Below are positions 29,842 to 61,906 of a DNA stretch of 64,000 bases, in pieces. The notes beneath the pieces were generated by a model. That model searched no databases, had not been told where the DNA came from, and saw only the letters and a list, made by a program, of their open reading frames with translations. The stretch's first letter is position 1. Every line of letters starts with the position of its first letter. Origin of the DNA: Comamonadaceae bacterium (lineage in GTDB: Bacteria > Pseudomonadota > Gammaproteobacteria > Burkholderiales > Burkholderiaceae_C); assembly GCA_013297925.1 (NCBI GenBank), contig JAAFJC010000009.1, positions 997-64,996 of the forward strand, in the 5' to 3' direction. Made by a program: the position numbers and the translations under genes.

Positions 29842-30065
29842 GAGAAGCTCCTGAAAATGTGGGAATGAATCCCGGGTTGTTGATGGACTCAATTCTTCTC
29901 AAAACGCCCGGAAGCAACAATGCCAGCGCAGGGCGGAAAACTTCCCATTCGCTGCCAAAAACCTCCGAGCGCGGAAGATTTCTTCCGGGGCTTGGCTGTA
30001 GTTATTGGGGCGGCGATAAAGGGTTAAACAACCCTTTTCGTATGTTCTTTGTTTGGCTAAAACGC

Positions 30066-30191
30066 TCGCCAGAGCACCCGGGGCGGATGGCTCCATGTCC
30101 TCCGGCGGTATCAAGGTTTGGTTTGTCTTCGGTAAGCTGAATGCGCCGCCTCCCCCTTTACTTACGCCATCCGCCCCGGGTGCTCTGGCGA
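30066..30191 (-). repeat. Family II long-hairpin element, copy U1 (sense strand inferred as minus)
   Basis: A perfect 26-bp stem (30066-30091 with 30166-30191) encloses, in minus-strand sense: GUAAGUAAAGGGGGA, inner stem GGCGG/CCGCC around a 37-nt loop, then GGAGGACAUGGA. Confidence 0.7.
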
Positions 30192-30234
30192 TCTTGTCGC
30201 AAATCGAGCATGTGGGTGCGTTAGCGATGCCCAT

Positions 30235-30361
30235 GCCCGTGTGATGTGGCTTTGTGTCTGGCGCAAGTAAAGGGGGAGGCGGGAGATAAGCGCACCGGAG
30301 GAGACGATGCCAATGCCCGCCGGAGGACATGGAGCCAGACGCAAAGCCACATTACACGGGC
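30235..30361 (+). repeat. Family II long-hairpin element, copy U2
   Basis: A 28-bp stem (30235-30262 with 30334-30361) has 2 non-Watson-Crick pairs, both G-U only on the plus strand. It encloses GCAAGUAAAGGGGGA, inner stem GGCGGG/CCCGCC around a 32-nt loop, then GGAGGACAUGGA. Confidence 0.7.
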
Positions 30362-30436
30362 TGCCTCCCCAAGCCATGCACAGAGCGCAACAGCTCACAC
30401 CTTCATTGCCGCATCAATAGCTTTCATAATGGCGGC

Positions 30437-31186
30437 ATGTCTACCCAACCAAAAATCGCCTTGATCGAAGATGATCAGCCCACCAGCGCCCAGCTTGCTG
30501 CGTGGATTCGCGCCGCGCGGCCTGATATTCAGATTGACACTTGGTTTAACCGCGACGATGCAGAAGCCGCGATAACGAGAGAGCGCTACGATGTGGTGTT
30601 GCTCGATATCGAGCTTGGTCATGAGAGAAATGCTGGCGTGGCGCTGATCAACACGATCAACAAGCTGCGCCCTGGCACGCCGGTGCTCGTGATCTCGGCG
30701 ATGCCCGCTGCGATTTACCGCAGCATCATGAAGGCGCTGGATGCTTGGGATTATTTGCAGAAGACGACCTTTGAAGAACGCGATTTCATTGAGACTTTTC
30801 TAGAAATACTGCGTGCAGCCCGCAATTCTCCTGCGCAAGCAGCTACGAATTCAGTAGCGCCTGCAAAGAGCGCAGACGATCTGAGCCTCGATCCCCTGTG
30901 GCAGCGCACGCCTACTTGGCGCGGCCAGCGCGTGAATTTGCCGCTCACGGCGCAGCGCATCTTGGCCACGTTACATCAGAGAGCTGGAGAAGTGGTGAGC
31001 TATGAAGAGCTGTTTGATGTGGTGAAAAGCGGGCGCAGCCGAGACAATGTGCGCAAGCATGTGAGCACGATTCGTGAGGCGTTCAAAGAGGTGGACGAAG
31101 ATTTCGCAGGCATTGAGAACATCCCGATGCGCGGCTTTCGCTGGATGCACGCAAAACCAATTCGCCCTCACGGTGGTTCGGCATGA
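30437..31186 (+). CDS. OmpR/PhoB-type response regulator (REC + winged helix)
   Basis: Contains KIALIEDDQ, VVLLDIEL and a C-terminal trans_reg_C-like region LTAQRILATL..RKHVSTIREAF. An in-frame upstream ATG at 30329 lies inside element U2, so the start is uncertain. Confidence 0.8.
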   Translation: MSTQPKIALIEDDQPTSAQLAAWIRAARPDIQIDTWFNRDDAEAAITRERYDVVLLDIELGHERNAGVALINTINKLRPGTPVLVISAMPAAIYRSIMKALDAWDYLQKTTFEERDFIETFLEILRAARNSPAQAATNSVAPAKSADDLSLDPLWQRTPTWRGQRVNLPLTAQRILATLHQRAGEVVSYEELFDVVKSGRSRDNVRKHVSTIREAFKEVDEDFAGIENIPMRGFRWMHAKPIRPHGGSA

Positions 31187-48484: not shown

Positions 48485-49051
48485 ATGTCTTACCTACCTT
48501 CTCGCCGCTTTCTGCTCACCGCTGGTGGAGCCGCCGCTACATTGGCCATCACCGGCTGCAGCACGGCGCCCCAAGTTGCTGATTACGCGTCTGAAAAACC
48601 CGTTTTTGATCTGAAGAACTATTTCAACGGCGTGGTCGATGGCTGGGGCATCTTCACCGACCGTGGTGGCAAAGTGGCACGCCGCTTTGTCGTGACGCTG
48701 AATTGCTCGTGGCAAGGTGATAACGGCATTCTTGATGAAGATTTCATCTTCAGCGATGGCAAAAAAGAAAAGCGCATTTGGCGCATGAAGCGCATCGCGG
48801 GCAGCGATGGCATCGTGCGTTACGAAGGCACTGCGGGCGATGTCGTGGGCATAGGCCGAGGCGAGCAGCGTGGCAATGCTTTCCGCTGGGGCTATACGCT
48901 GGCCTTGCCAGTTGATGGCAAAGTCTATGAAGTGCAGTTTGACGATTGGATGTATCAGATGGACAGCAAAGTCGTCATCAACAAAGCTACCATGAGCAAA
49001 TTCGGCATCACGCTGGGTGAGCTCGTCGTGACCTTCACCAAGCGAAATTAA
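48485..49051 (+). CDS. DUF3833-like lipoprotein
   Basis: Lipobox LAITGCS. Length is 188 aa. Family name is from recollection. Confidence 0.55.
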   Translation: MSYLPSRRFLLTAGGAAATLAITGCSTAPQVADYASEKPVFDLKNYFNGVVDGWGIFTDRGGKVARRFVVTLNCSWQGDNGILDEDFIFSDGKKEKRIWRMKRIAGSDGIVRYEGTAGDVVGIGRGEQRGNAFRWGYTLALPVDGKVYEVQFDDWMYQMDSKVVINKATMSKFGITLGELVVTFTKRN

Positions 49052-49072
49052 TTGGGTTCTGACCCCAATTAA
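49048..49072. repeat. 9-bp hairpin TTAATTGGG-ttctgac-CCCAATTAA overlapping the DUF3833 stop codon
   Basis: It shares CTGACCCCAATT with the right arm of the inverted repeat at 61108-61127. Confidence 0.5.
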
Positions 49073-49102
49073 TTCAATGAAACAACAACAAAGCAGCACC
49101 TG

Positions 49103-49873
49103 ATGAGCCTCAATCCCAAAATCACCGATTGGCACGGAAAACGTGTCTGGCTCGTGGGCGCTTCTACCGGCATTGGCCGCGCTACTGCGATTGCCTTGCA
49201 TGCGGCTGGTGCAAAAGTCTTTGTGTCAGCCCGCAGCCCCGCGCCTTTGGCTGAGCTTGCCCAGCAATACCCCGGCTTGCAAACTATCCAATTGGATGCG
49301 ACCGATGAAGCAGGCGTGAAAGCTACAACGCAAAAACTGATCCTGGAGGGCGGCCTCGATCTCATGATGTACTGCGCCGGCATTTATCAACCACTGCGCG
49401 CGCAAGATATCAAAAGCACGATCATGGCGCAGCATATGCAGGTCAATTACATTGGCGCCGTGTATGTGACAGAAGCTGTGCTTCCTGCCATGCTTGCTGC
49501 CAAGCACGGGCATTTGAGCTATGTATCGAGCGTAGCGGGCTTTCGCGGGCTGCCGAAATCCTTGGCTTATGGGCCAACCAAAGCCGCGATGATCAACATG
49601 GCGGAAGCACTCTATATTGATCTACACGATGAAGGTTTGGGCGTGAGTGTGATCAATCCCGGCTTTGTGGAAACGCCGCTCACCTCCCAGAATACGTTTC
49701 GCATGCCCGCGCTCATCAAACCTGAAGAAGCCGCCACTGAAATCATGGCAGGCTGGCAAGCAGGAAAATTTGAAATGCACTTCCCCAAACGCTTCACCGC
49801 TTGGCTCAAGCTCATGCGCAGCGCGCCGCACAGCCTGTACTTCAAGATGACGCGGCAGTTCACGGGGCTGTGA
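49103..49873 (+). CDS. SDR-family oxidoreductase
   Basis: Contains VWLVGASTGIGRATA and YGPTKAA. Confidence 0.85.
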   Translation: MSLNPKITDWHGKRVWLVGASTGIGRATAIALHAAGAKVFVSARSPAPLAELAQQYPGLQTIQLDATDEAGVKATTQKLILEGGLDLMMYCAGIYQPLRAQDIKSTIMAQHMQVNYIGAVYVTEAVLPAMLAAKHGHLSYVSSVAGFRGLPKSLAYGPTKAAMINMAEALYIDLHDEGLGVSVINPGFVETPLTSQNTFRMPALIKPEEAATEIMAGWQAGKFEMHFPKRFTAWLKLMRSAPHSLYFKMTRQFTGL

Positions 49874-49874
49874 C

Positions 49875-50318
49875 ATGGCGCATACAGCAAGCGATCCGCG
49901 CGTGCAGCGCATCGTCGATTTCTTCGAAGGCCTGCAACCCGCTTCTGTGCAACTCATGGGCGAGTTCTACACCCTTGATGCGTACTTCAAAGACCCGTTC
50001 AATGAAGTGCGTGGCCTGCCAGAAGTGCAGCGTATCTTCAGCCACATGTACGTCGCCCTACACGAGCCGCATTTTGTGGTGACGAATACTGTGACGCAAG
50101 GCGATCAATGCTTCATCGTCTGGGATTTCAAATTTCACTTCAAGCGCTTTGATACCGTGACGATGCAAGCCGTGCGCGGCTGCTCGCATTTGCAATTAGC
50201 TTCTGATGGGCGCATTGCGTTTCATCGAGACTACTGGGATGCAGCGGAAGAGCTGTATGAGAAGCTGCCGTATGTGGGTGCGTTGATGCGGTGGTTGAAG
50301 AAGCGCGCTAATAGCTGA
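49875..50318 (+). CDS. NTF2/SnoaL-like small protein
   Basis: A 147-aa protein at the usual terminal position of the conserved cluster. Confidence 0.55.
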   Translation: MAHTASDPRVQRIVDFFEGLQPASVQLMGEFYTLDAYFKDPFNEVRGLPEVQRIFSHMYVALHEPHFVVTNTVTQGDQCFIVWDFKFHFKRFDTVTMQAVRGCSHLQLASDGRIAFHRDYWDAAEELYEKLPYVGALMRWLKKRANS

Positions 50319-50450
50319 TTTCAGTTGGTGCTCGGAAGGTTTCGTTCGGCGAGAGCGGCTGCGAGTGCGAGGCCTCTTGGTTACTCTGAAAATTTTTACC
50401 CGTTGATAGTCACTCAGCACGCACTATGTTTGTGAATGATGACTGTGATT

Positions 50451-50527
50451 GGGTTATCTCACGCAGCAAAATAAAGGGGGAATGCGGGCAAAGCCCGCAG
50501 GAGGACATTTGCGGAGTGGGATAGCCC
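50451..50527 (+). repeat. Family II long-hairpin element, compact copy U3
   Basis: A 20-position outer stem (50451-50470 with 50508-50527): 16 Watson-Crick pairs, 2 U-G pairs on the plus strand, and 2 mismatches. It encloses AUAAAGGGGGAAU, the hairpin GCGGGC-aaa-GCCCGC, then AGGAGGACA. Confidence 0.65.
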
Positions 50528-50570
50528 AAGCGCAGGCGGCATTCACAGACCGCAAGCGCTGCCAGCTAGC

Positions 50571-51644
50571 TCAAGCCACAACCATACCTTCGCGGACAAC
50601 TGTTACATCATCTAGAGCAACAGTGCAGTGCTTCAGGGGCAAATCAAAATGCCCAAGTGTGTACCGCCCAGCAGTTTCATTGGCCCCGGTGCTGTAGAGA
50701 AAACTACCCGCAGCGCAACGTAACTCCGTGCCATTGAAATCGCGCTTGTCAAACATCGCCATGCTGTCAAAACGCGCTGCGGTGTTCAGGCCATAGCCGA
50801 CGTGCGAAACGGCATAGGCTGCGCGATGGCCATCGCGCGCTTCCCAAGCGGCAAGATACTCACGCATGAGCTGGGCATCCACGCCCGAGCCTTCAATCTT
50901 TGTGATGTGATCGTTCTCAATCGTGAGTGAAATGGGTTGCTCGATATAGCGCTTGAAGGCCAAGTTCACATCACCCACACCGAGCACCAAACGGCCATTC
51001 ACACTGCCCGCTTTGGGAAAGGAGAGCACAAGGCCTCCGGCGAAATGCGTCATCGTGCCGGGTTTACTGGTATAGCCCCAATTGCCGCCGCTCGGCGCAC
51101 CTTCTAAAGCAATGTGCAAATCCGTGCCCGCTGCGCTGCTCACATACATTTTTTTTGTACCGCGCAAACGCTTGCTGTGCGCCTTCACGGTTTGCTCTAA
51201 ATCATCATCTGGCAACATACGGCAAAGAGCCTCCGGATGCTCATTGCTCACATAGATCACGCGCGGCTGCGTTGTGCCATTGCCCTTCAAAATCGCAGGC
51301 AGCTCAGGTGCATGCATCAGGCCTTCAACCGTGCAATCGATCACCAGATGGCTGCCCGCCAAAGCTTGAATCACGGGCGCGATGCCCGCAATGGCTGTGC
51401 TTGCGCCCGTGGAGCGGATGATCGGCGTTGGCGGCTGGGTCAGGGCGGGCAACGTGGGCAGGCTCAGCGTGAAAACTTGCGCGCCTATGCGCGCACAGGC
51501 GTGGCGCAGGGCTTCGATCAAATCGGGTCGTGATTGACTCTCGCACAAAATCGCTGCGGTCTCACCGCCTTGCAAGGCGCAGCGGCGCAGCAAGGCCTCA
51601 AAGCAGTCGATCCAATGGGGCTCAATGCGGGTGGCGGGTGTCAT
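50571..51644 (-). CDS. M29-aminopeptidase-fold protein (NicX / 2,5-dihydroxypyridine dioxygenase-like)
   Basis: A 357-aa protein. Its C-terminal half (SHVGYGLN..GSFLYSTGANE..LGHFDLPL) resembles my recollection of the NicX family. Confidence 0.5.
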   Translation of the reverse strand: MTPATRIEPHWIDCFEALLRRCALQGGETAAILCESQSRPDLIEALRHACARIGAQVFTLSLPTLPALTQPPTPIIRSTGASTAIAGIAPVIQALAGSHLVIDCTVEGLMHAPELPAILKGNGTTQPRVIYVSNEHPEALCRMLPDDDLEQTVKAHSKRLRGTKKMYVSSAAGTDLHIALEGAPSGGNWGYTSKPGTMTHFAGGLVLSFPKAGSVNGRLVLGVGDVNLAFKRYIEQPISLTIENDHITKIEGSGVDAQLMREYLAAWEARDGHRAAYAVSHVGYGLNTAARFDSMAMFDKRDFNGTELRCAAGSFLYSTGANETAGRYTLGHFDLPLKHCTVALDDVTVVREGMVVA

Positions 51645-57268: not shown

Positions 57269-57290
57269 TTTTTATCATCTTGCATCTCAA

Positions 57291-57350
57291 TCCGTTCGCC
57301 CTGAGCTTGTCGAAGGGTGGTGAGGCTTCGACAAGCTCAGCCCGAACGGA
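57291..57350. repeat. REP-type palindrome of the CCCTGAGCTTGTCGAAGG class
   Basis: tccgttcgccctgagcttgtcgaag-N10-cttcgacaagctcagcccgaacgga (23 of 25 positions pair). It produces the classic spurious peptide LRQAQPERN in the track ORF at 57317. Confidence 0.8.
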
Positions 57351-57386
57351 ATGTGTATCGAGTCACTAGCCTTGTCGTGTCACCCG

Positions 57387-61000: not shown

Positions 61001-61042
61001 CGCCGGCATAGATACTGCGCGAGCAGCTATTGAAAACATAGC
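61001..61042 (+). repeat. Family I repeat, copy C (forward orientation), 3' of livF
   Basis: cgccggcatagatactgcgcgagcagctattgaaaacatagc. Confidence 0.8.
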
Positions 61043-61049
61043 GAAAACT

Positions 61050-61124
61050 GGGGTCAGATCACATTTCAGGACACTCCACTAACCGGCGTGCAACACAGCC
61101 CAGACGAAAATGTGCTCTGACCCC
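61050..61124. repeat. Inverted repeat (17 nt arms, 1 mismatch, 41-nt loop), MITE- or terminator-like
   Basis: ggggtcagatcacattt ... aaatgtgctctgacccc, followed by AATTTTT. Confidence 0.6.
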
Positions 61125-61434
61125 AATTTTTGCGGCGCACGCCAATCAGTTGATTCATGCCAGCACAGTTAGCACGCAACCCGTTGCACACCACCTTTTG
61201 CACCTGCGGCCTACCATCGGGCTTTGCCTCAGAAAGTTTTTTGAAAATACACGCGATAAAGGCCTCGGTGAATTAAAGATGTCTCCGCGCGCCTTCCAAA
61301 AAATTTCCGATCCAAACACCCAATGGTCTCCGCCTGCGAACAAAATAGGGCCAGTATCTACAAGACGTTTCTCGGGTTAGTATAGATTTCTCTCTGTCAG
61401 AATCGGGGCACATTTTTCTAAATGGAGTCCAACA

Positions 61435-61692
61435 ATGCTTACGGCGTTAGAAAAGAGAGTGATTACAGGCTCGGCAATTATTGGAACAATTGTTGGAGGA
61501 CTTCTGGCGTACGCCGTGTTCGCATTTACCAAGGAATTTGAAATGCAACAAGGCATATCCTATGGCGCATTGCGTACGGCAGTAAATGCTGCGCTTGCAT
61601 TTTTTATGACGATATTTGCAACCGTCTGCTTTCTAGGAATCGGGTCTATCTTTGTCATCAGGTGGCTCTCTAATCGCAACCCTGAAGATTGA
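61435..61692 (+). CDS. Small two-TM membrane protein, unknown function (85 aa)
   Basis: GGAG lies 7 nt upstream of the ATG. There are two clear hydrophobic helices, and the local GC content is lower than the surroundings. Confidence 0.5.
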   Translation: MLTALEKRVITGSAIIGTIVGGLLAYAVFAFTKEFEMQQGISYGALRTAVNAALAFFMTIFATVCFLGIGSIFVIRWLSNRNPED

Positions 61693-61758
61693 TGCGTTTG
61701 TGAATTTGATCTCCTAGTATCTCAACAAGATTCACGATATTTTCTGGGATAGCTATAG

Positions 61759-61906
61759 AGCCACGGCTGGGCGGTTAGCAGCCTGGCGATTTTGGCAGCG
61801 CAGGGTTGGGGAACGCGAGTGCGTTCCCTCGTTATTTCAAGCGACGGGTGTCGCGTCATTCCCGAGCTGACTAATGAGCCAGGATGATGACCGCCCAGCC
61901 GTGGCT
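61759..61906. other. Unassigned 148-nt structured element (multi-hairpin closed by a perfect 17-bp stem)
   Basis: agccacggctgggcggt (61759-61775) pairs with accgcccagccgtggct (61890-61906). Inner pairings are cctggc/gccagg, the hairpin gggaacgc-gagt-gcgttccc, and the hairpin gcgac-gggt-gtcgc. Confidence 0.5.

Follow-up and report, generated by a model that had tools for sequence, protein, structure and literature searches.

The intergenic region between a SnoaL-like gene and a NicX-like gene of a Comamonadaceae bacterium (contig JAAFJC010000009.1) holds a long hairpin, U3, that is one member of a family of more than 200 copies, found in Burkholderiales, Sulfuritalea and Stenotrophomonas genomes and in metagenomes. 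The window, i.e. the whole stretch of 64,000 nucleotides that was analyzed, contains two further copies, U1 and U2, 20 kb from U3. In this family base pairing is maintained, the strand that folds is defined and copies follow a doublet rule; close relatives differ by gain and loss of the element, and the source metagenomes contain it in multiple copies. With somewhat more confidence than doubt, we regard it as a family of mobile extragenic palindromic DNA repeats of Burkholderiales and their neighbors, resembling the REPIN/BIME doublets of repetitive extragenic palindromic (REP) sequences, in which U3 would be a solo unit.

All three copies in the window share the module TAAAGGGGGA ... GGAGGACA, and their long stems are perfect in U1 (26/26) and 93% complementary in U2. 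The short strings of the module (11-mers) each occur at chance frequency in the window when taken alone, so the case depends on the whole architecture. A pattern scan over one genome per species returned 118 stretches, about 45 of which are true family members, from Rhodoferax, Variovorax, Polaromonas, Rhizobacter, Piscinibacter, Ideonella, Aquabacterium, Rubrivivax, Brachymonas, Sulfuritalea and a Stenotrophomonas metagenome-assembled genome. The remaining pattern matches (about 60% of the raw output) come from unrelated phyla, form no hairpin and are due to chance. A covariance model search, proposed in the original prediction, used a model (R1) built on a 40-sequence seed alignment that includes U1, U2 and U3; these three, all of them seed members, are its only matches in the 64 kb, with E of about 1e-16 each. 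R1 recovered 62 copies in the genome loci and rejected roughly 70 chance pattern matches from unrelated phyla, and in a separate metagenome scan it identified 142 strong copies, none of which is in the seed.

The original prediction had itself set one explanation against its finding, namely chance similarity of GGAGG-like strings in intergenic DNA. The chance frequency of the single 11-mers and the large share of chance matches in the raw scan agree with it, but the full element scores E of about 1e-16 to 1e-23, and the more than 200 finds come from related taxa and keep both architecture and covariation, while the chance matches lack the element. Refuted by the model search and by covariation, this explanation retains practically no weight. 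Rfam 15 gave no match to the 64-kb window at gathering thresholds, and with E allowed up to 10 its models (CsrB/Rsm, 6S and riboswitches included) yielded generic long-hairpin microRNA models only. No description of the family was found in the literature on its motif strings or in reports of REP and miniature inverted-repeat transposable elements (MITEs) in Comamonadaceae.

The sequence given for U3 in the original prediction (50451-50527) matches the window exactly, and direct counting of the pairs between the arms gggttatctcacgcagcaaa and tttgcggagtgggatagccc returns the same 16 Watson-Crick pairs, two T.G wobbles and two mismatches. The two mismatches sit either side of one C-G pair, and this mismatch-C-G-mismatch segment is the conserved 3x3 loop of the family, GCA/GGA. 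The stem reaches further outward, to 50443/50535, and inverted-repeat arms can be traced across 50428-50550. Other copies in the source metagenomes align with U3 from 50443 to 50535-50540 and diverge outside these limits. Folded as RNA, the plus strand reaches -47.6 kcal/mol (z = -7.1) and the minus strand -34.4 kcal/mol (z = -4.8), so the strand asymmetry is real. The parts of the hairpin are listed in Table 1.

From the outside inward, the family consensus consists of a long outer stem in which one segment, GGGT(G/A)/(C/T)ACCC, is semi-conserved, the 3x3 loop GCA/GGA, a 5-bp helix (helix 2), the purine internal loop and, at the tip, a variable apical hairpin. Helix 2 occurs in covarying Watson-Crick types (GCGAA/TTCGC, GCGGC/GCCGC, GTGAC/GTCAC and, in U3, GCAAA/TTTGC) and in a non-Watson-Crick type made of GC plus tandem G.A (GCGAA/TGAGC). 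In the purine bubble UAAAGGRGGA faces GGRGGACA. The proposal that the internal loop plus two helices are the core is borne out, as this is the conserved part of the family. The statement that the outer stems of the window's copies are unrelated is not wholly so: they have the semi-conserved segment in common, and copies from Variovorax and Brachymonas (L008, L109, L074) have stems homologous to that of U3.

Covariation had first been argued from the three copies in the window, which are inadequate for the purpose because their stems share ancestry; the conclusion itself holds on 200 copies. The 40-sequence alignment has 30 consensus pairs, of which 29 show compensatory changes. In the 62 genome copies 93.5% of cells are paired, against 58.8% in shuffles, and the covariation score is 0.84 against 0.21 (0.08-0.15 in slid controls). 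The metagenome copies outside the seed, 141 of them counted as independent, give 96.1% paired against 61.1% in shuffles and a score of 0.867 against 0.199 (slid controls ≤0.15), and in this set all 30 modelled pairs covary.

Within the stems, G.U pairs exceed A.C mismatches 130:19 in the genome set and 271:30 in the metagenome set. Since an A.C mismatch is a G.U pair on the opposite strand, this excess indicates that the purine-motif strand is selected to fold single-stranded, and replication-linked mutation bias cannot account for it because doublets hold both orientations side by side. The purine-motif strand is the folded one, as had been claimed from the wobble pairs of U3; the G.U test fits RNA and single-stranded DNA alike.

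The two strands of the purine bubble are coupled. Among 189 distinct copies, base 6 of the 5' motif and base 3 of the 3' motif are G/A in 59 and A/G in 114, with mixed states almost absent (G/G in 1, A/A in 3; Fisher p = 4e-42), and rarer variants keep the same antiparallel register, e.g. AAAGAAGGA with GGATGACA, where the two bases form an A-T pair. Such near-perfect coupling suggests that the internal loop is probably a purine-purine helix and not a floppy bubble. The apical loops of 184 compact copies include 113 triloops of 3 nt; C-GNA-G accounts for 68 of the 184, GNRA for 5 and UNCG for 2. d(C-GNA-G) mini-hairpins are exceptionally stable in DNA, while structured RNAs favor GNRA and UNCG tetraloops. 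Five copies (L042 4414-4590, L118 1853-2028, L230 4829-5002 and 12777-12950, and L036 982-1099) share one extra segment of ~70 nt with two small hairpins (…GAGCCCGGACACAAACAGTCC.GTGGACTGTTTGTGCCTGGCGA.CGCCCGGGGCTCTGCCCCGGG…), always placed where GGRGGA meets CATGAGC in the 3' loop strand; this segment may be either a nested second palindromic element or the mark of an expanded subfamily.

The normal form of the family is a divergent doublet, in which a minus copy, a spacer of ~43 nt and a plus copy follow each other with the 5' ends of the copies face to face. Such doublets occur at 21 loci of the genome set, in addition to U1/U2, and in the metagenome loci 57 of the 67 adjacent copy pairs are minus-plus, with spacers of 32-57 nt (median about 43). 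Among cultured carriers, Variovorax sp. PDNC026 has a doublet on NZ_CP070344.1, at about 1013.6-1013.9 kb. The spacer sequence is not conserved and often consists of two inverted ~20-nt leaders. Promoters in the spacers were rejected, the spacers being unconserved and too short, and the sigma-54-like and palindromic TTGGCGCGCCAA strings seen in them are accounted for by abutting inverted 5' leaders. In 60 of 63 cases the two members of a doublet have the same type of helix 2, but their stems differ; their bubble variants may match or differ. An obligate heterotypic pairing of the Y/Z type was thus discarded (v2/v2 in 30 pairs, v1/v2 in 13, v1/v1 in 5). Two clusters are exceptions to the doublet rule: L232 4099-4878, with one minus copy and then three tandem plus copies at a 260-bp period, and L258 1231-1487, with two plus copies and 45 nt between them. 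Both look like BIME arrays.

At the U3 locus both gain and loss can be followed. Among named organisms, the closest to the window by its NicX-like protein is Variovorax sp. PCZ-1 (89% identity). The nearest relative, locus L202 (92% identity), has a full doublet in its SnoaL-NicX intergenic region: its plus copy is orthologous to U3, and 75 nt upstream lies a minus copy with the other bubble variant. The window lacks exactly this minus hairpin (its scar is given in Table 1), so U3 is, judged from the two aligned regions, what remains as a solo copy of a doublet whose other member was lost. The changes between U3 and its orthologue preserve the structure: A-U to C-G in the outer stem, U.G to C-G, and A-U to G-C in helix 2, which reads GCGAA/TTCGC in L202, a compensatory change. 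The original prediction had proposed to check whether orthologous intergenic regions keep the element; L202 does, but L203 (PCZ-1) and L204 do not, and there the genes of the interval abut or overlap. SnoaL and NicX overlap by 4 bp in L203, and L204 has an extra SBP_bac_11 gene between them, so the junction has been remodelled more than once. A metagenome contig jumps from 50342 to 50553 of the window.

The U1/U2 doublet lies in an inserted module of 413 bp. In four relatives, whose regulators are 81-94% identical to that of the window, the intergenic region between the Band_7 gene and the regulator gene is 160-185 bp long and contains no model match. The insertion point reads GGTTA|GCTT, with a single TA in the empty sites, and the ends of the module match in inverted orientation at 14 of 18 positions. 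An empty site was also found in a co-occurring strain, as a 97%-identical contig of one of the source metagenomes jumps from 29995 to 30418. By comparison with these sequences, both loci in the window are insertions that close relatives lack. The module lies 17 bp upstream of the start codon (30437) of a ChvI-like response regulator conserved across Comamonadaceae and therefore cuts the regulator-kinase operon off from its native upstream region; as this copy pair is present in this genome only, the family may alter expression between close strains. In the left tail of the module a small hairpin resembling a terminator (about 30025-30051, AAAGGGTT-aaac-AACCCTTTTCG) is oriented toward the regulator gene.

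The repeat is the hairpin and not its surroundings in terms of copy number. The depth of contigs at least 80% similar is 35-635 on the U1/U2 hairpins and 3-9 on their flanks, and 50-100 on the U3 hairpin and about 10 on its flanks; these depths are not per-genome counts, because the source metagenomes are mixed communities with several related organisms. Overall, hairpin depth is 5-80 times that of the flanks, contigs break at the hairpin bases, and over spacers and tails the depth does not rise above baseline. On some contigs a span of 8-14 kb includes two or three sites.

These boundaries bear on a second explanation, a cut-and-paste MITE moved by an IS630-type DDE transposase with TA duplication, in which the module of ~400 bp would be the mobile unit and the hairpins passengers that persist via templated repair or RNA-level tolerance. 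The 413-bp insertion with TA on both sides and partly matching inverted ends would suit it, and so would the L202 module, given its position at a CTAG/TA site and the similarity of its ends (TTGG... and ...ATCAA); the module is moreover non-coding, below 500 bp and polymorphic between relatives. The U1/U2 module suggests a TA duplication, and the U3/L202 site is compatible with TA or CTAG, but insertion sites have been defined at these two places only. The tails and putative inverted repeats, unlike the hairpins, are not repeated in the metagenomes, the boundaries of the repeat are the hairpin bases, and no motif or k-mer was enriched in the 3' flanks, tails or termini of the sets of 62 and 141 copies. 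A transposase that acts on double-stranded DNA would also leave the 9:1 asymmetry of G.T over A.C and the coupling in the bubble unexplained. Membership among DDE-type MITEs fails on conserved termini, as far as the termini can be compared, and we consider the explanation improbable.

A third explanation holds that the family is primarily a functional structured RNA, either a small RNA (sRNA) or a cis-acting mRNA element, with mobility secondary. Its bubble would bind the 30S subunit (as complement of CCUCCUUU, with GGRGG on the 3' strand) or a GGA-binding protein such as CsrA. Very strong covariation, the G.U excess on one strand, a bubble sequence that is invariant across orders and the compensatory changes between orthologous copies all speak for this explanation. 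The sigma-70-like site of U3, whose predicted start falls at the hairpin base, and the sense orientation of U2 in the 5' region of the ChvI-like regulator gene add to this, as does the complementarity of the 5' bubble strand AAAGGRGG to the 3' tail of 16S rRNA, CCUCCUUU; we treat this last point as a lead, not as evidence. But no Rfam family matches, no intrinsic terminator was found at U3, and the 3' flanks of the copies carry no T runs. For U1/U2 neither a promoter-like site nor terminators were found, and the L202 spacer does not conserve the site of U3, which is probably due to chance. The unconserved ~43-nt spacers leave no room for two promoters, and solo copies favor neither orientation with respect to genes (in co-directional contexts three are sense and three antisense; orientation is mixed in the genome set too). 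There is no conserved gene association, the apical loops are DNA-type triloops and not GNRA or UNCG, and presence differs between close relatives. The claim that U3 is a small RNA gene found no support, given the missing terminator, the promoter-like site not shared by the orthologue and the solo copies in either orientation; a search for RNA runs that contain the region returned none. The narrower readings as an intrinsic terminator (a GC-rich hairpin without a U tract) and as a 6S-like RNA (on defining features) were rejected as well. With no terminator, free orientation and triloop tips, the indirect evidence leans toward a DNA-level element over an mRNA element, and binding to CsrA or to the anti-Shine-Dalgarno sequence is not needed to explain the data. 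We rate a primary RNA function as unlikely, though worth keeping in mind. The case also teaches caution, since covariation and G.U bias alone are no proof of a functional RNA.

In the mobile DNA repeat that we favor, a unit would comprise a leader of ~20 nt and a hairpin of 95-130 nt, and the replicating form would be two such units head to head, the divergent doublet. The element would act as a folded single-stranded DNA hairpin whose purine bubble is the putative recognition site of a strand-specific enzyme (a REP-associated tyrosine transposase (RAYT), an IS200/IS605-type HUH transposase or an equivalent), while the stems would need only to pair. Inserted hairpins may be tolerated mainly behind gene ends, and co-transcribed copies would fold in mRNA as a side effect.

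Several points weigh against this model. Nunvar et al. 2010 (PMC2817692) found RAYTs in essentially no group but Gammaproteobacteria, the classical GTAG/CGTC tag of REPs is not seen, and the units are 3 to 5 times as long as a REP. No transposase was seen beside or between copies in about 125 loci, and among the genes at these loci, to which the search was confined as opposed to whole genomes, no single-copy RAYT (Y1/HUH) gene flanked by repeats was found. In a 1.24-Mb Variovorax replicon BLAST detects one doublet only (2 places), and a model scan of the 40 kb around it gave no further copy. The two precisely bounded insertions carry unique tails, which pure hairpin mobilization leaves unexplained, and the compensatory changes between U3 and its L202 orthologue could stem from selection for a function in the host or from repair templated by the hairpin itself. 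Finally, the strong divergence of stems within one genome and the invariance of the bubble across orders are better matched by a conserved partner in the host than by a transposase specific to one lineage. We entertain, tentatively, that the hairpin has a partner new to such repeats, either a new strand-specific single-stranded DNA enzyme driving a REPIN-like replicator of Betaproteobacteria, a group in which RAYTs are largely unknown, or the ribosome or a conserved RNA-binding protein. If the latter were true, the partner would recognize a structured, double Shine-Dalgarno-like purine bubble, and co-option would have turned a mobile repeat into a portable RNA module.

The genes around the copies were called with a GC3 heuristic and are approximate. 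Among 51 doublets with gene calls on both sides, 32 are in co-directional, 15 in convergent and 4 in divergent contexts, so that divergent contexts are depleted (p = 0.0017), and many doublets begin 17-50 nt past a stop codon. The genes beside or between copies in the roughly 125 loci are TumE/TumA, a BrnA-like antitoxin, a PIN plus DUF6364 toxin-antitoxin, ordinary genes and one prophage. When the proteins next to the window's copies were searched by tblastn against the 118 loci, none recurred near other copies, and a leader or 3' untranslated region role tied to particular genes is therefore ruled out. The original claim of a dispersed structured element that is not a leader of the two-component operon is upheld, as copies lie in unrelated gene contexts and their structure is conserved. 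U3 itself ends a conserved cluster (48485-50318: MFS_2, a DUF3833 lipoprotein, a short-chain dehydrogenase and SnoaL_2) that converges on the NicX-like gene; further on in relatives the cluster includes Chalcone_3 (L202-L204) and a cyclopropane-fatty-acid-synthase-like gene (L203).

At three loci a toxin-antitoxin module lies between two copies: a TumE/TumA-like one in L074 (6569-7568), one with a BrnA-like CopG antitoxin in L051 (2949-4659) and a PIN plus DUF6364 module in L215 (401-1578). The copies around them are divergent in L074 and L051 and in direct orientation in L215. Small mobile cassettes may thus land preferentially in the interval between copies. Only 1 in 2.9 million viral contigs has copies, the 42.8-kb contig IMGVR_UViG_3300024949_000020. 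Its copies (L149 446-554, minus; L191 7351-7430, plus) are divergent and lie at its two ends, outside the phage genes read, which are Mu-like (portal, gpF-like, baseplate, tail fibre); beyond one copy follows a host SDR gene, and just inside the truncated plus copy a TGATGCCTCAAAC string is repeated. It looks as though a Mu-like phage had inserted into a doublet spacer. A phage origin of the family was rejected, the sole viral carrier having its copies outside the phage genes.

Table 1 Features of the U3 family in the window
Feature	Position	Strand	Basis and remarks
U3 hairpin unit (repeated unit)	50443..50535	+	Fold; covariance-model match 50438-50539, 76.5 bits; core first proposed 50451-50527
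Outer stem, 5' arm ctgtgattgggttatctcac	50443..50462	+	Partner 50516-50535; all 24 outer-stem pairs covary family-wide
Outer stem, 3' arm gtgggatagcccaagcgcag	50516..50535	+	Sequence, fold, family covariation
Conserved 3x3 internal loop, 5' side GCA	50463..50465	+	Faces GGA at 50513-50515; family table of loop/helix types
Helix 2, 5' strand gcaaa	50466..50470	+	Partner tttgc at 50508-50512
Purine internal loop, 5' strand ATAAAGGGGGAAT	50471..50483	+	Near-invariant in 200 copies; covaries with 3' strand
Inner hairpin GCGGGC-aaa-GCCCGC, variable apical domain	50484..50498	+	11 to about 120 nt in other copies
Purine internal loop, 3' strand AGGAGGACA	50499..50507	+	Family alignments; coupling with 5' strand
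Sigma-70-like TTGATA-16-TATGTT	50403..50430	+	Just 5' of U3; 1 found, 0.3 expected
SnoaL-NicX intergenic segment with U3	50319..50570		Insertion relative to Variovorax sp. PCZ-1 (L203) and L204
Scar gagg|cctc of lost partner copy	50369..50376, junction 50372/50373		Minus hairpin of L202 absent in window
U1, minus-strand unit of the intact doublet	30066..30191	-	Shared module, covariance model, inverted repeats
U2, plus-strand unit of the same doublet	30235..30361	+	Shared module, covariance model, inverted repeats
U1/U2 spacer, 43 nt	30192..30234		Two 5' leaders head to head
Inserted module, 413 bp, U1/U2 plus two unique tails	30005..30417		TA on both sides; absent from four relatives and the co-occurring strain

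Two mechanical open reading frames (ORFs) touch the copies. One of 82 aa (50449-50697, plus strand) runs through U3, and another (30329-31186, plus strand) takes its ATG from the loop motif of U2 (GGAGGACATGG) and continues in frame into the regulator gene. Because stems vary between copies, such hairpin-initiated ORFs lack conservation, and their annotation as genes or as N-terminal extensions is not warranted. The window also holds other hairpins. That at 57288-57353, with 28-bp arms (CAATCCGTTCGCCCTGAGCTTGTCGAAG / CTTCGACAAGCTCAGCCCGAACGGAATG), belongs to a separate extragenic repeat family and resembles a common proteobacterial repeat, often mis-translated as ...FDKLSPNG/FDKLRANG... peptides. 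Two long imperfect hairpins at 61041-61133 (26-nt arms) and 61759-61906 (46-nt arms) are unrelated in sequence to the U3 family and flank an AT-rich stretch with a small ORF (about 61416-61693).

With the U3 family, the extragenic palindromic elements gain a widespread repeat that has apparently gone undescribed. In Comamonadaceae, the Rubrivivax group and related genomes its copies risk being mistaken for sRNAs, riboswitch-like leaders or small ORFs. Its design, with an invariant covarying purine-purine loop, free stems and non-identical hairpins head to head, is unusual for a mobile repeat and makes it a clean system for asking what a hairpin-recognizing enzyme or factor reads.

Among known systems, CsrB and RsmX/Y/Z likewise display several GGA-containing purine motifs on a structured molecule, but they hold GGA in hairpin loops and are encoded by a dedicated gene with promoter and terminator, whereas the motifs of the U3 family lie in the internal loop of a mobile repeat without an Rfam match. 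IS200/IS605 ends and integron attC sites share strand-specific folded hairpins in which structure and a few unpaired bases are kept while the stem is free, and a terminal structure that ranges from a 3-nt loop to a long domain. IS200/IS605 ends differ in being same-strand ends that flank a tnpA gene, and attC sites in having R''/R' boxes and same-orientation cassette arrays; the enzyme of neither was found near the family's elements. An attC identity was rejected, as inspection of the alignments revealed no RYYYAAC / GTTRRRY boxes and copies are mostly inverted pairs. ERIC, Correia (CREE) and RUP-type bacterial MITEs, too, are inserted non-coding sequences, 100-400 bp in length, that form long hairpins. 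They have TA-containing insertion sites and strain-variable presence, and the 5' region of a gene can be their landing site, as it was for U1/U2. In these elements the terminal inverted repeats are conserved and the whole element is one hairpin, whereas in the U3 family the termini are unconserved and two internal hairpins with a sequence-specific bubble are what is kept.

The closest parallels are the REPIN/BIME elements, i.e. the RAYT-mobilized REP doublets of Pseudomonas and E. coli. REPs are defined by a conserved GTAG or CGTC tag at one end in a survey (PMC3733652) that does not include the carrier taxa described here. The first columns of the family alignments contain no conserved base that could be a REP-type tag. 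Units are hairpins of 95-130 nt against 20-40 nt in REPs, conservation falls on an asymmetric purine internal loop and on neither the stem nor a GTAG/CGTC tag, even copies inside one genome have diverging, covarying stems, and the two units of a doublet do not pair together outside the core. No RAYT was found at the loci studied, and copy number can be as little as the single doublet that BLAST detected in the 1.24-Mb replicon. Unit length and tag place the family outside the classical REP-RAYT system. Both are nevertheless extragenic palindromes that lie mostly behind gene ends, with an inverted doublet of fixed short spacer as the normal form and solo units that arise by decay; both occur in multiple copies, the U3 family as judged from the source metagenomes, and are gained or lost within lineages, and in both one strand folds better by virtue of G.T wobbles.

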